From: Coriobacteriia bacterium
Lineage (GTDB): Bacteria; Actinomycetota; Coriobacteriia; Anaerosomatales; SLCP01
DNA: 64,000 nt
NCBI GenBank assembly: GCA_007121015.1
Contig: SKMN01000012.1
Coordinates: forward strand, 150 to 64,149
Reading direction: 5' to 3'
Shown piece by piece: positions 1,901-26,441 of this stretch. The number at the start of each line of letters is the position of its first letter. The stretch's first letter is position 1. Below the pieces are notes generated by a model. It had not been told where the DNA came from and did not search any database. It saw nothing but the letters and a program-made list of their open reading frames with translations. Both the position numbers and the translations under genes were made by a program.

Positions 1901-2213
1901 CCCTGGTACGAGCCCGTGCGCACATCGACCCGGTCCCCTCCCGTGTGGCGTGTGGGTGGGGACCGGGTCGATGGGGCGACCAGATCTCGTACCCGGCAGT
2001 CCGGCTGTCGTGGGAAGATCGCTCTTCCGTTAGACCCGTGACTTTGCGAAGCGCGCCTTTCGGCGAGCGGTGCCTTTTTCGGGGAGTCCGTCTCGATGTG
2101 CTGCTGTCAACTGCTTACACTGGGTATATCGGCACGAGAGCGGCGTGACTGAAGTTATTTCTGTAATGTACGTCACAGGGATACTCGGGTTTCCAACTCA
2201 GAGAGGACGACGA

Positions 2214-19512: not shown

Positions 19513-20985
19513 TTACTCCCACTCGAGCAGACGCCGCTGCCCCTGAAGCGAGCGCACGTGCGTGGCATCCTGCACCACCTCGAGGCAGCCGCGGTACGCG
19601 CCCTCGGCATCGCGCAGCGCGTAGTAGCGGATGTGGATGAACGTGCCGCCGAGCTCGATCCAGAACTCGGCGAGGTCCTTCTCACCAGCCTTGAACGCTG
19701 CGAGGATCCGCTCGACCACGTCGACACTCTTGGGCGGGTGGCAGTTCTTCACTTCCCGGCCGATGACCGCGGGCGAGCGCGGGAAGACCCGGTCGCCTTC
19801 CGAGTAGAAGCGTACGCGGTCGTGCTCGTCGACGTAGGTGACGTCGAACGGGAGCGCGCGCACCATGAGGTCGATCTGTTCGAGCGTGAGCGCGCCGGTG
19901 GTGAGGGGCAGGTGGGCGTCGCGTCCGGAGGCCGCGCCGGTCGTTGTCTCACCGACGGCCGCTGGACCCGGCGTTGCCGCGCGGGCGGGCGGCTCGATCC
20001 ACGCGAACCCGATCTCGGACTCGCCGGCGGCCATCGCCTCCCACTCTCCCTCCGAGAGCGCTTCGAGCGCGGTCGGGAAGAGTATCTTCTCCTCCTTGTA
20101 GATCATGTCCTCGACCATGCCGAGGGTCTTCGGGAGTTCGCCGAGCAGCGTCGCGACATCGCCGGAACGCGCCGTCGTGAGGTCGGCTTTGAGGCGTGCG
20201 CGGATGTCGTCGTCGATACCCCACATGACCTTCGTGGGCCCCTCGATGCCGTGGTTCTCGAGCATCGGGAATAGCTGGTTCTCCTTGCGCGTGTAGTGCA
20301 CGGCGAGGCCGTCGAGCAATCGCTCGATCCCGGTCGCGAGCGCCTCGAGCACGGTCGCGGAGTCCTCGGCGGCAAGCGACTCCACCTCTTCGAGCCCGCA
20401 CCGCACCGACGACACGATCTCGCCCGCGACCTCGTTCTCGCGCCGGTATGTCGTGACAGGGTGATTGGACGGGAGCTCGGTCTCCTCGGCCGATTCAAGC
20501 GACTCTTTGAACACGGTTACGTGCACGTCGCAGAGGCGCTGTACCTCGGCGACGGGCATGCCCTCGGCGATGAGCGCCTGCTCCATGGCGGCGATCTCGG
20601 CCGCGTCGACCTCGGAGGCGAGGGCATCGAAACGCGCCTTCACGTCGTCGACGGAAGCCCCCTCGTGAAGCTCGCGGATGATCTCCTTGAGGACGGCCTG
20701 GCGACGGGTGCGCGACTCCTCATCCGCTGCCCCCATGCTGGATGAGGGCGCCTGCGTGTGGATCTCGTGCCGGGCGATCTCGTCGGTTACAGCCACGACG
20801 AGCTCGTCTGCGTCCATGTCGCCCATCTCGGCGACGGTGCTCAGGCTTGCCACGCGTGCGACGGTGGTGCGCAGCACCGGGTTCTTGAGCTTCGCGAACT
20901 CGGGACGGAGCCCGGCGAGGAAGTCGAGCATGAACGGATAGGCTTCGATAAGGTCGTGGACCTTCGTCTCGCGCGTGACCTGCAT
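19513..20985 (-). CDS. DUF1858 / hemerythrin-like / DUF438-PAS domain protein
   Basis: N-terminal DUF1858-like sequence (VHDLIEAYPFMLDFL), central HHE-type helical repeats, and a C-terminal DUF438/PAS sequence (FDVTYVDEHDRVRFYS...GREVKNCHPPKS). RBS GAAGGAG upstream of ATG 20985. Confidence 0.7.
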   Translation of the reverse strand: MQVTRETKVHDLIEAYPFMLDFLAGLRPEFAKLKNPVLRTTVARVASLSTVAEMGDMDADELVVAVTDEIARHEIHTQAPSSSMGAADEESRTRRQAVLKEIIRELHEGASVDDVKARFDALASEVDAAEIAAMEQALIAEGMPVAEVQRLCDVHVTVFKESLESAEETELPSNHPVTTYRRENEVAGEIVSSVRCGLEEVESLAAEDSATVLEALATGIERLLDGLAVHYTRKENQLFPMLENHGIEGPTKVMWGIDDDIRARLKADLTTARSGDVATLLGELPKTLGMVEDMIYKEEKILFPTALEALSEGEWEAMAAGESEIGFAWIEPPARAATPGPAAVGETTTGAASGRDAHLPLTTGALTLEQIDLMVRALPFDVTYVDEHDRVRFYSEGDRVFPRSPAVIGREVKNCHPPKSVDVVERILAAFKAGEKDLAEFWIELGGTFIHIRYYALRDAEGAYRGCLEVVQDATHVRSLQGQRRLLEWE

Positions 20986-21082
20986 CGGGGACTCCTTCCG
21001 GGGTGGGCCGCCAACGCGGCTCGCGCACGCGCGGGCCGCTACGAAGGTGTGTACCCGATGAGGCGGGAGTCGGCGCGGTCGC

Positions 21083-21688
21083 TCACGAGCCGGTCCCACC
21101 GTCCTGCTCCGCGTCCGGCGCGGCGATCGAGCGGCCTATCGAGAAGGCGTCGGCAACGACCGGTCCGAGCGCGCGATACTCCCGGCTGCCCGCGATGTAG
21201 ACGAGCGGGTCGAGCAGGCCGACGTCGACCTTCTCGCCGGTCGCGTCGAGGACGTGTTCATCGGCGTGTGTCTCGACGACCTCGCCCACGACGAGCGTGT
21301 AGTGGCCGATGTCGACCTCGTGGGTCACACGGCACTCCATGTTGTACGGGCACTCGGCGATGATGGGGGTGCTCACGACCGCGGCGGGCACGAGGGTGAG
21401 CCCGGTCGCGGCGAACTTGTCGGTGGCCTTCCCGCTCGTGATGCCGCAGAAGTCGACCTCGGCGGCGAGGCGGGTGGCGGGGATGTTGACGGTGAATTCG
21501 CGTCCGTCGCGGATGAGAGCGAGCGTGTGCCGAGTGTCGCGGAGCGCCATCGCGACACTCGGGGGTGAGCCCGCGGCTATGCCGATCCACGCGACGGCGA
21601 GCGTGTCGACCTGCTCGCCGCTGCCGCCTACCACGAGAGGGCAGGGCATCGGGTAGAGGCGGTCGGACGGTCCGAGACGCTTCTTCAT
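21083..21688 (-). CDS. Flavin reductase-like FMN-binding domain protein
   Basis: LYPMPCPLVVGG...FTVNIP...CGITSGK, a pattern typical of flavin reductase domain proteins; 201 aa. Confidence 0.7.
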   Translation of the reverse strand: MKKRLGPSDRLYPMPCPLVVGGSGEQVDTLAVAWIGIAAGSPPSVAMALRDTRHTLALIRDGREFTVNIPATRLAAEVDFCGITSGKATDKFAATGLTLVPAAVVSTPIIAECPYNMECRVTHEVDIGHYTLVVGEVVETHADEHVLDATGEKVDVGLLDPLVYIAGSREYRALGPVVADAFSIGRSIAAPDAEQDGGTGS

Positions 21689-21838
21689 CGGGTGCTCCTT
21701 GCGACGGTACGGCAGGTTCGGCAGCGCGGCGAGGTGGCGTGAGCCGGCCGACCGCCGCGCGTGTCGAGAGTGTACTTCAGCGTCCGCACGTGCCGAAAGG
21801 TGAGCCGGCCCGGTATGGGATGTCAGGGCTATCCCGAC

Positions 21839-21867
21839 TTGACGGATGCGGCCGAGGCGGTCAGGAT
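21839..21867 (+). promoter_or_regulatory. Possible promoter for the met leader
   Basis: TTGACG (21839-21844), 17 nt spacer, CAGGAT (21862-21867). This has the same architecture as the dnaK promoter (TTGACA-17-TAGGAT). Confidence 0.3.
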
Positions 21868-21972
21868 GCAGAGCACGTTACGTGGACTGGCCTGCCGTTT
21901 GCAGGACGGTCACCCCCTACGAGATGGCGGAAGGAGGTGCGGTACCAACAGCCATGGTTCGCTACTCTGTGT
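21867..21972 (+). promoter_or_regulatory. Candidate SAM-I-superfamily riboswitch aptamer upstream of metY-metX-metW
   Basis: - Possible four-helix layout.
- P1: CAGAG (21869-73) with CUCUG (21965-69).
- P2: GUG(G)AC...GUCAC enclosing the hairpin CCUGC-CGUUU-GCAGG.
- ACUGGCC...CGGUCACC resembles the SAM-I core ACUGGCCC...CGGCAACC.
- P3: CACCCCCU...AGGAGGUG, containing a GGUGC element.
- P4: ACCA...UGGU.
- Context: it lies directly upstream of a methionine biosynthesis operon.
- It was not checked against a covariance model. Confidence 0.45.
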
Positions 21973-22094
21973 TCGCGATGATGATGGAGATGATGATGAC
22001 CCAGCCCGGGTCTCGTTGCGCATGCGACGGGTCTGGGCGCCTCGGCCACCCGGCCGGACGCTAGGTCGGGTACATCTATCCTCAGCATCGATGA

Positions 22095-24633
<2,539 letters not shown>

Positions 24634-24637
<4 letters not shown>

Positions 24638-25251
24638 CCGCGGCAGACCTCCTGCGCTCGGACCTGCGCCTCATCACCGAGATGGTCCCGCCGGGGAGCC
24701 GCGTACTCGACCTCGGGTGCGGCGACGGCTCGCTCATGGCGCACCTGCGTGACGAGAAGGGGTGCACCGTGCGCGGTGTCGACCTCAGTCCGGAAGACAT
24801 CGCGAGCGCGCTCGCGCGGGGGCTCTCGGTGGTACAGATCGACCTCGACGAGGGGCTCACCGGTTACCGGGACGACTCGTTCGACTTCGTCGTGCTCTCC
24901 CAGACGCTGCAGGTCGTGCGGAGGCCGGCGTTCGTCGTGCGCGAGATGCTCAGGGTGGGGTGCCACGGCATCGTCACGTTCCCCAACTTCGGGCACTGGC
25001 GCGTGCGGGGCTACCTGGCGCTCCGCGGTCGCATGCCGGTGTCGCGGTCGATCCCGTTCACGTGGTACGACACGCCCAACATCCACCACACCACGATCAC
25101 CGACTTCCGGGAGTTCGTGACCGCGAACGGCGCTGTCATCGAGAGGGAGGTGCCGCTCGCCACGAGCGGGTGGGCCGGATCCGCCCGCCCGGTCCGCGTG
25201 TGGCCCAACCTGCTTGCCGACACCGCGGTCGCGCTCGTGAAGCGGGCGTAG
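24634..25251 (+). CDS. metW: Methionine biosynthesis protein MetW
   Basis: LRSDLRLITEMVPPGSRVLDLGCGDGSLMAHL and FPNFGHWRVR. ATGA overlap with metX. Confidence 0.9.
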
Positions 25252-25322
25252 GCGCCACCGGGTATGGCACGCGTGCGCGACACGCCTCGCGCGAGCGGGG
25301 TATCCTGTACGACGTGTCCACA

Positions 25323-26441
25323 GACGACCACAACGCCGCGGTCCCAGACGCCGCGCCCCAGGGCGCAGCGCCGCCGCGCGACCTTCCCGCCCTCGGCTTC
25401 ACCGAGCGCTTCGAAGCGCTCTTCGCCCCGCTCGCCCCAGGCGGCCTGATCCCCGGCAGGGTGAGCCGCATCGACCGCGGCCAACCCCTCGTGTTGACCG
25501 CCGATGGGCCCCTCCGTGCCGAGCTCGCCGCGCACCTGCGCGGAGTCGCCGACGCCGCGATCGCGGTCGGCGACTGGGTCGCGCTCGCTCGCCCCGAAGG
25601 CCACGACCTCGCCATCGTCGAAGCGGTCCTGCCGAGGACCTCGGTGTTCACCCGCAAGGATCCGGGCGACCACGCGGTCGAGCAGGTCGTCGTGGCCAAC
25701 GTCGACACCGTGTTCGTCGTGCAGTCCCTCGCGCCGCGCGGCCCCAACCTGGCGCGGCTCGAGCGCGAGCTCGTGCTGGCGTGGGAGAGCGGCGCCCAGC
25801 CCGTCGTGCTCCTCACGAAGCCGGACCTCGTCGACGACCCCGAGGCCCTGCGGGCCGAGGCGGCCACCGTCGCGCTCGGCGTCGACCTCCACGTCGTCTG
25901 CCCCATCACCGGTGAGGGGTTCGACATCCTCGCCGGTTATCTCGGCCCGGGTCGAACGGTGGCGTTCTTCGGCGCGTCGGGGGTGGGCAAGTCCACCATA
26001 GTGAATCGGCTCGTGGGAACGGACGTGCAGGAGACCGCCGAGGTACGAGACGCCGACGGCAAAGGCCGCCACACCACCGTCGCACGCGAGATGTTCTTCA
26101 TCCCCGGCGGGGGCATCGTCATCGACACGCCGGGCATGCGCGCTCTCGCGCTCTGGAACGCCGAGGAGGGCATCGCATCGGCGTTCCCCGACGTCGAGGA
26201 GCTGGCCGGGGGATGCCGTTTCGCCGACTGCGCCCACACGGTCGAACCCGGCTGCGCGGTGCGGGAGGCGGTCGAAGCCGGCACGCTGCCTGCGCGGCGG
26301 CTCGAGAGCTACCTCGCGCTCCGCGAGGAGCTCGAACGGTTGGCCGTCAAGCAGGATGCCCGGGCGCGGGCAGACAAGCACCGGTCCGACAAGGCGTTCG
26401 GCCGCCAGGTGAAGAACTTCTACAAGCAGCGTGAGAGGTAG
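25323..26441 (+). CDS. rsgA: Ribosome small-subunit-dependent GTPase A
   Basis: Circularly permuted GTPase motifs (LLTKPDL, then FFGASGVGKSTIVN, then DTPGMR) and a C-terminal zinc motif CRFADCAHTVEPGC. The upstream part of ORF 24762..26441 overlaps metW and is not coding; the GTG 25323 start is approximate. Confidence 0.85.
   Translation, partial: DDHNAAVPDAAPQGAAPPRDLPALGFTERFEALFAPLAPGGLIPGRVSRIDRGQPLVLTADGPLRAELAAHLRGVADAAIAVGDWVALARPEGHDLAIVEAVLPRTSVFTRKDPGDHAVEQVVVANVDTVFVVQSLAPRGPNLARLERELVLAWESGAQPVVLLTKPDLVDDPEALRAEAATVALGVDLHVVCPITGEGFDILAGYLGPGRTVAFFGASGVGKSTIVNRLVGTDVQETAEVRDADGKGRHTTVAREMFFIPGGGIVIDTPGMRALALWNAEEGIASAFPDVEELAGGCRFADCAHTVEPGCAVREAVEAGTLPARRLESYLALREELERLAVKQDARARADKHRSDKAFGRQVKNFYKQRER

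Follow-up and report, generated by a model that had tools for sequence, protein, structure and literature searches.

Leader-peptide attenuation is known for tryptophan, histidine, leucine, threonine, isoleucine/valine and phenylalanine, and for cysteine in mycobacteria. The textbook modes of control for methionine genes are SAM riboswitches, T-boxes and repressors. The closest described system to the one presented here is a group of leaderless polycysteine short ORFs in mycobacteria, in which stalled ribosomes block a structure sequestering the ribosome-binding site (RBS) of the next gene (Canestrari et al. 2020, 10.1101/834739). The same paper describes ermCL and cat, where a ribosome held on the leader remodels mRNA pairing and frees the downstream Shine-Dalgarno (SD) sequence (10.1101/834739). 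In a 2005 survey of Actinobacteria (PMC1262725), genes for Trp, Cys and Leu/Ile-Val were found to have leader peptides, and for methionine operons neither a leader peptide nor any other RNA element was reported. The available part of PMC2965389 has nothing on Met leaders, the word "methionine" is absent from the uORF4u paper, and within the literature searched there was no report of a methionine leader peptide, a Met-codon run, or a Coriobacteriia leader or riboswitch of such a kind. The locus analyzed here is probably a methionine-responsive, ribosome-mediated attenuator of metY-metX, which would act mainly at translation initiation by means of a helix that pairs the start region of a short leader ORF with that of the gene.

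The leader lies within a 64,000-nucleotide stretch of a Coriobacteriia contig, which is referred to below as the window. It precedes metY (22113..23456, + strand), a gene of 447 codons for O-acetylhomoserine sulfhydrylase (PF01053, E 1e-127; TIGR01326, 639 bits vs 495), the stop codon of which is overlapped by metX (23453..24637, + strand), encoding homoserine O-acetyltransferase (NF001209, 510 bits vs 331). The initial annotation had described a mini-ORF of 28 codons in front of metY. Its reading of the frame as ATGATGATGGAGATGATGATGACC from 21978, open until a TAG at 22062-64 and ending 48 nt before the metY ATG at 22113, was confirmed, as was the observation that six of the first seven codons of the run are Met (ATG ATG ATG GAG ATG ATG ATG, 21978..21998, + strand). 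The stop codon was also correctly placed, but the start was not. Comparison with relatives puts it at a conserved ATG at 21954, which is 8 codons 5' of the Met run, and the mini-ORF (21978-22064) forms the 3' three-quarters of a leader ORF, or uORF, of 36 codons plus the TAG (21954..22064, + strand) with the predicted product MVRYSVFAMMMEMMMTQPGSRCACDGSGRLGHPAGR. The frame upstream of 21978 is open as well, as part of a listed ORF at 21846-22064. In addition, the initial annotation had noted no convincing Shine-Dalgarno sequence, yet a strong one, AAGGAGGTG, is found at 21931..21939 (+ strand) in front of the conserved start.

A possible promoter, proposed tentatively, consists of TTGACG (21839-44), a 17-nt spacer and a weak -10-like CAGGAT (21862-67), together spanning 21839..21867 on the + strand. 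TTGAC and TAnnnT-like hexamers align in several relatives, and a consensus promoter scan made no call at 21839..21867. Contig cover from the RNA library is confined to 21856-23679, and a 248-nt metatranscriptome contig spans 21905-22152 without differences, bridging the leader and metY. The run was made on the sample that also gave the best-matching DNA run. Because its depth was low and the library may contain DNA, the contig is taken only as a weak hint that the leader and metY are co-transcribed. Elsewhere in metY, contig depth in two DNA runs rose to ~900-1300 at 22312-22425, compared with 10-40 outside this interval, which probably reflects a conserved stretch common to other organisms in the sample. 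Upstream of the leader are a gene for a DUF1858-DUF438-hemerythrin-PAS multi-domain protein (19513-21099, - strand) and, following it, one for a flavin reductase (21083-21688, - strand); the pair is transcribed away from the metY leader. Downstream, an ORF of 559 codons (24762-26441, + strand) encodes an RsgA-type GTPase in which the RsgA domain begins only at residue 289, so that either the protein has a long N-terminal extension with no domain assigned to it or the start was called too early.

The leader is conserved well beyond this genome, to a degree that chance would not produce. A comparison of the leader DNA with 61 related genomes (own genome included) returned matches in 34, with similarity beginning only at window positions ~21915-21932 (query 216-233). 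When ~185,000 species-representative genomes were scanned with an exact core pattern, 61 stretches matched. Their titles name Coriobacteriia, Anaerosomatales or Actinomycetota MAGs or "uncultured Eubacteriales", and all 61 have a metY homologue (69-92% identity) just 3' on the same strand. A looser pattern applied across the class was detected in 78 of 401 genomes, with none for the reversed-pattern control; it was present in 72 of the 145 other genomes of the same order and in 5 of 255 from the other orders of the class. The 1.94-Mb genome from which the window derives holds a single copy: the core motif has one exact match (reversed-pattern control, 0), and two further places with 2 mismatches to the motif are not leaders. 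Among five near-complete genomes of the same order that lacked a DNA match, two contain metY with a diverged leader, one of them reading ..SVMNMMMRSPG.., and in the other three no metY was found with this query. Genomes of the same order with two metY-type leaders were also observed (L079/L086 and L045/L088; G111 and G237), each leader lying 5' of a metY-like ORF of ~430-445 codons. The metY genes concerned may thus be paralogues that share one mode of control.

Removal of duplicates from 91 loci left 67 distinct leaders, on which the following counts are based. The initial annotation had proposed a Met-codon leader peptide before metY and had called for a comparison of the leaders of related genomes. 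In that comparison the ATG run and its frame proved to be conserved, and start, frame, Met run and stop are kept in every one of the 67, which strongly supports the proposed leader peptide. The motif GGAGGTG of the SD is likewise invariant (67/67). The spacer between SD and start measures 14, 13, 12 or 11 nt (10, 37, 19 and 1 leaders, respectively), changing in single-base steps. On the other side of the start codon, which was taken as the first ATG or GTG found 8 nt or more past GGAGGTG, the distance to the Asp/Glu codon of the run is 33, 30, 27 or 24 nt (49, 16, 1 and 1 leaders), a multiple of three in all 67. Start codons are ATG in 64 leaders and GTG in 3. Stops are TAG (50), TAA (12) or TGA (5), located at eight different distances from the run, and the first stop triplet of any frame after the hairpin P1 described below is the in-frame one in 61 leaders. 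The openness of the frame is in itself weak evidence for coding, since the other two frames after the run are mostly open too (stops in 8/67 and 4/67 leaders). A protein search with the 72-aa stop-bounded ORF as query found no candidates among proteins of 39-126 aa, a result that is uninformative either way.

At the codon level, the second ATG triplet never changes among the 48 leaders that align without gaps, and neither does the last Met codon of the first one. The codon in the middle of the run varies (GAC, GAG, GAT, GGC, GCG or AAC). The number of Met codons within the 7-codon run is 4-6 across leaders, and a divergent leader from the same order has altered flanking codons and retains M-N-MMM. 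Codons 2-8 vary in the 48 ungapped leaders without three-base periodicity (entropies of 0.92, 1.02 and 0.92 by codon position), and their amino-acid sequence is therefore not under visible selection, which is neutral for translation of the ORF or counts against it. The synonymous sites of the ACC, CCC and GGG codons, on the other hand, never vary, which indicates a constraint at the level of the RNA. As read from these alignments, selection is on translation signals, Met codons and RNA pairing, with the rest of the peptide not visibly selected. This is the pattern that would be expected of a leader peptide.

The predicted RNA fold is dominated by a long helix, P0. Its 5' strand (21951..22002, + strand; identified from the minimum free energy (MFE) structure, individual folds and covariation) contains the uORF start codon, codons 2-8, the Met run and the ACC codon. 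Its 3' strand (22068..22118, + strand) contains the CAUC-rich partner of the Met run, the region preceding the SD of metY, the SD-like GGAAGUGAGA (22098-22107) and the metY AUG (22113-15). P0 encloses a hairpin, P1 (GCCCGGG...UCUGGGC, 22004..22038, + strand, with an inner stem at 22012-19/22024-31; MFE and covariation), and two small hairpins (22043..22067, + strand; MFE), the second of which carries the uORF stop (22062-64) in its loop. Leaders folded individually share this architecture, and in 53 of the 67 a local hairpin has the stop codon in its loop. The outer stem of P1 is nearly invariant, and 4 of the 5 inner-stem pairs are changed on both sides. Because RNAalifold returned only 14 pairs on the MAFFT alignment, the structure was derived from individual folds and tested separately. 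The P0 duplex has a mean energy of -42.3 kcal/mol (z = -5.1 relative to shuffled partners, with all 67 leaders below z = -1.64), compared with -35.8 when partner strands were taken from other leaders. On the MAFFT alignment, built from sequence only with no structure imposed, standard pairs make up 82.8% of 2849 cells vs 30-44% with the partner slid by 1-3 columns. Covariation is 0.163 vs 0.05-0.09 for the slid partner, and on four of five measures none of 500 shuffles reached the observed values. Eighteen P0 pairs are changed on both sides.

The changes are distributed unevenly along P0. Where uORF codons 5-8 pair with the stretch preceding the metY SD, 8 of 12 pairs are changed on both sides. 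In the sub-helix formed by the Met run, 5 of 8 pairs are changed on one side only, and because the Met-run columns are nearly invariant, these changes sit on the partner strand. A fixed Met-run strand opposite a drifting partner indicates that something other than pairing holds the strand, and a need for the AUGs as codons is the simplest candidate. The initial annotation had regarded a location of the tract in a helix as an argument against a leader peptide. The tract is indeed paired, in P0, but the argument does not follow, since the tract is fixed and its partner varies, as codon constraint predicts. The coding RNA of the leader is in a conserved pairing that bears on the gene downstream, with the SD and AUG of metY inside P0.

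A homologous leader was also found in front of another type of methionine gene. A scan for M3-x-M3 across 401 genomes of the phylum matched in 8, and in two of these, which belong to a species-rich genus of another order, as well as in two more genomes of that genus, a homologous ORF of 36 codons is present. Its sequence in this genus is MFTTAAHMMMVMMMPSPGHFAMP..ETGRLR, and the GCCCGGG..CCGGGCG hairpin is again present. A covariance model built on the Met run and P1 was then run over 150 genomes of the class, where it recovered the metY leaders at 53-96 bits and a further series of ~85-nt matches at 32-45 bits. Of twenty of these places that were inspected, fifteen have a Met-rich short ORF (mostly ..MMMVMEMPSPG..). 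The other five, the low-scoring matches L182 and L188-L191, were dropped as false, having neither a Met-rich short ORF nor a MetN-like gene downstream. In total, homologous leaders precede genes for a MetN/MetI-like ABC transporter at 19 loci (L131, L135, L139, L140, L172-L181 and L183-L187), from families f31, f29 and f27 of the same class and one genome of the same order. That last genome has a metY leader and, in addition, a diverged copy, MSAFETPMTMCMSMPEPG.., ~205 nt before such a transporter. The peptide conforms to MF/ITTAAH..MMMVM[ME]MPSPG.. at 17 of the 19 loci, L186 and L187 being more divergent.

The gene following all 19 of these leaders is a homologue of one ABC ATPase (53-94% identity; the query's own locus and 18 of the 23 subject loci). 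Four of the ATPases were compared with NCBIfam, and each matches MetN best, at 294-322 bits, with the next family at ~230. These scores are below the cut-off of 499.7, and the match takes in only roughly the first 240 positions of a model of 343. At L135, the one locus checked with NCBIfam for the following gene, a MetI-like permease comes next (175 bits vs a cut-off of 212). The transporter is a probable methionine importer. In both forms of the leader, SD-led and transporter-type, a short 5'-leader ORF with its own translation start signal stands before an amino-acid operon, and its codon cluster is for the amino acid that the genes downstream make or import (metY-metX or MetN/MetI-like). 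The start signals differ. A TAnnnT hexamer ends 7 nt (17 loci) or 8 nt (1 locus) 5' of the ATG in all 18 transporter-form leaders tested, a set that excludes L186, and an SD-like motif was seen in none of these 18. On this basis the transporter form is probably leaderless, and the same start codon would be served by two ways of starting translation, one SD-led and the other promoter-adjacent. The transporter-form leaders fold alike, the 5' half of the uORF pairing with the SD and GUG start of the transporter gene. To find one design before both methionine synthesis and probable import genes is, in comparative work, the classical argument that an element responds to methionine.

The locus offers conserved ORF signals, a Met run, a covarying P0 and a link to methionine genes. 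As for the control itself, we infer that the uORF is translated and that ribosomes stall on it, as well as the direction of the effect and its level (translation or transcription). The Met run would be the sensing part of the translated 36-codon leader ORF controlling metY-metX. On an mRNA free of ribosomes, the uORF's 5' half would pair with the SD region and AUG of metY to form P0, hiding both start sites. With ample methionine, a ribosome loading from the strong, exposed SD would open P0 briefly and run to the stop, after which P0 would re-form. When charged Met-tRNA is scarce, ribosomes would dwell on the AUG run and probably queue over codons 1-8, holding the 5' strand of P0 and leaving the metY start region open, such that metY-metX is translated. 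In particular, a trailing ribosome loaded from the exposed SD or the 5' end and parked over codons 1-8 could keep P0 open. The outcome would be no different with a stall early in the uORF, or if P0, in a race with transcription, could not form as long as ribosomes occupy the leader.

This scheme was examined with equilibrium folding models in which a ribosome was represented by a 29-nt footprint; the models took in 57 of the 67 leaders, and the remaining 10 were left out (metY AUG off the aligned column, or end of the stretch reached). In the free leader, the predicted probability of being unpaired is 0.15 for the metY AUG, 0.05 for the uORF AUG and 0.77 for the uORF SD. The predicted value for the metY AUG is 0.62 with a ribosome at the uORF start, 0.55 with one at codon 5, 0.24 with one at codon 8 (first Met in the A site) and 0.16-0.21 with ribosomes at later Met codons; the footprints in these models are displaced by one base, the Asp codon having been indexed 1 nt off. 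For the wider metY start region, the corresponding predictions are 0.34 for the free leader, 0.42 at the first Met, 0.34 at Met 4-6 and 0.52 with the whole 5' strand covered. Opening of the metY start by a single ribosome stalled at Met 4-6 was discarded, equilibrium folding showing no change (0.34 to 0.34). As a lone ribosome on the Met run hardly affects access to the metY start, the scheme would need queued ribosomes, a stall early in the uORF or an effect during transcription. In silico, it is occupancy of the first eight codons that opens metY, and the Met run lies one ribosome length further on. The models lend only modest support to the proposal that stalling opens P0. The fixed spacing of 12 codons from the start codon to the second Met triplet may mean that the active state consists of two queued ribosomes.

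The same Met leader peptide might instead act mainly on transcription, through intrinsic or Rho-dependent termination as classical attenuators do, rather than on initiation of metY translation. The arms of P1 and of the downstream hairpin are alike and would allow alternatives of the 1:2, 2:3 and 3:4 type, an untranslated metY would be open to Rho, and two of the transporter-type leaders (L131 and L140) have a GC hairpin followed by a U run past the stop codon. In the window, however, a scan of 21900-22113 for intrinsic terminators found no terminator-like site and no U tract after the hairpins, and the best-supported conserved pairing is the one that directly hides the metY start region. We therefore consider this reading unlikely as the main mode of control, although a transcriptional component is possible given the hairpin and U run of some transporter-type leaders.

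It is less probable still that the RNA itself binds a ligand, with the junction of P0, P1 and the small hairpins sensing SAM, methionine or another metabolite to stabilize P0, and the reading frame being incidental. Such a reading would fit the junction-like fold with its invariant nucleotides near the junction, the invariant synonymous sites and the lack of codon periodicity in codons 2-8, and OFF riboswitches are usually built with a closing helix that conceals the start. What it leaves unexplained is the invariant SD in one form of the leader and the promoter 7-8 nt before the ATG in the other, the occurrence of indels in threes inside the ORF and as single bases in the spacer, the in-frame stop in 61 of 67 leaders and the fixed Met run opposite a variable partner strand. 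Nor does the element correspond to any family in Rfam 15. The initial annotation had placed a SAM aptamer just 5' of the ORF. This was not borne out: no Rfam family reaches threshold in 21650-22200, where even at E<=10 only 8 chance-level matches were returned (the best at 17.5 bits vs a gathering score of 45), none of them to a SAM or T-box family and none to a Met-specific T-box covariance model. In addition, the region of the supposed aptamer is not conserved, as shown by the point at which similarity to relatives begins. A SAM riboswitch covariance-model match at the gathering score was absent from the whole window, in which the only above-threshold Rfam match is a c-di-GMP-I riboswitch at 1992-2084 (- strand; 57.4 bits vs a gathering score of 35). 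With the aptamer lacking support from both the Rfam search and conservation, the suggested "dual sensor" of SAM and Met-tRNA is not supported either. The genome's only SAM-I-like element (42.7 bits vs an Rfam cut-off of 44.4, E 1.6e-8) is located directly upstream of metK, the gene for SAM synthetase, on another contig (C74; L129, 1501-1616, - strand), and SAM-IV was not found in the genome. The genome appears to use the SAM-I-like sensor for metK and the Met leader for metY.

There is also a slight chance that ..MMMDMMMTxPGS.. acts, as a nascent chain, as an arrest peptide and stalls the ribosome in response to free methionine or SAM, in the way TnaC does with tryptophan, and not in response to the supply of Met-tRNA. 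M-D-MMM-T-x-P-G is almost invariant within the order and P-G follows the run in both leader forms, but the middle residue is variable (D, E, G, A, N or V) and the transporter form reads MMMVMEMPSPG. Moreover, RNA pairing can account for the conservation of the Pro-Gly codons, which fall on the invariant 5' arm of P1. Finally, a chance (GAT)n-like repeat without function, a notion suggested by the tract reading as GAT repeats in another frame, has practically no likelihood and is already refuted by conservation of the tract and its flanks in 67 distinct leaders, always before metY, with a reversed-pattern control of 0.

Returning to attenuation by the Met leader at translation initiation, the two forms of the leader lead us to lean, with some reserve, toward a methionine "ribulon" in the Coriobacteriia, in which SD-led and leaderless Met-codon leaders would switch on metY-metX and a MetNI-like importer according to Met-tRNA supply. 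The ribosome would be the sensor of this supply and would unzip the long helix that pairs the leader start with the gene start. A Met version would fill a gap in leader-peptide attenuation and, if true, would be the first methionine-specific leader-peptide attenuator, built on a codon that also starts translation; AUG, the start codon, could then serve as a hunger codon. One sensor would then exist in nature as both an SD-led and a leaderless version, and the SAM-I-like element of metK together with the Met leader of metY would split SAM sensing from the sensing of charged tRNA. The element also flags small ORFs that lack annotation, together with a probable methionine importer, in little-studied Coriobacteriia, environmental ones among them.

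Set against known systems, the leader resembles SAM riboswitches and Met T-boxes in being a cis-acting 5' leader for methionine genes with a closing helix that hides the start; it differs from them in lacking a covariance-model match and in that a ribosome at AUG codons would read the signal. With the trpL, hisL, leuL, thrL and ilvL attenuators it would have in common a translated leader, regulatory codons and coding RNA engaged in the decisive pairing. Classical attenuators of the trpL type have an intrinsic terminator with a competing antiterminator, which was not found at 21900-22113; here no terminator hairpin with a U tract precedes metY, and the conserved pairing hides the start region instead. 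In ermCL and cat the stall depends on an antibiotic and the nascent peptide, whereas here it would depend on the supply of charged tRNA (10.1101/834739). The likeness is closest to the polycysteine ORFs as described in the same paper (10.1101/834739): these too are short ORFs with a run of codons for what the pathway finally makes, they are leaderless, as the transporter form appears to be, and several loci share one signal. The differences are that the amino acid here is methionine and not cysteine and that the form in the window is SD-led. In addition, conserved hairpins lie inside the ORF here, and the masking helix is very long, with ~50 nt per strand, and pairs the AUG of the leader with the AUG of the main gene.
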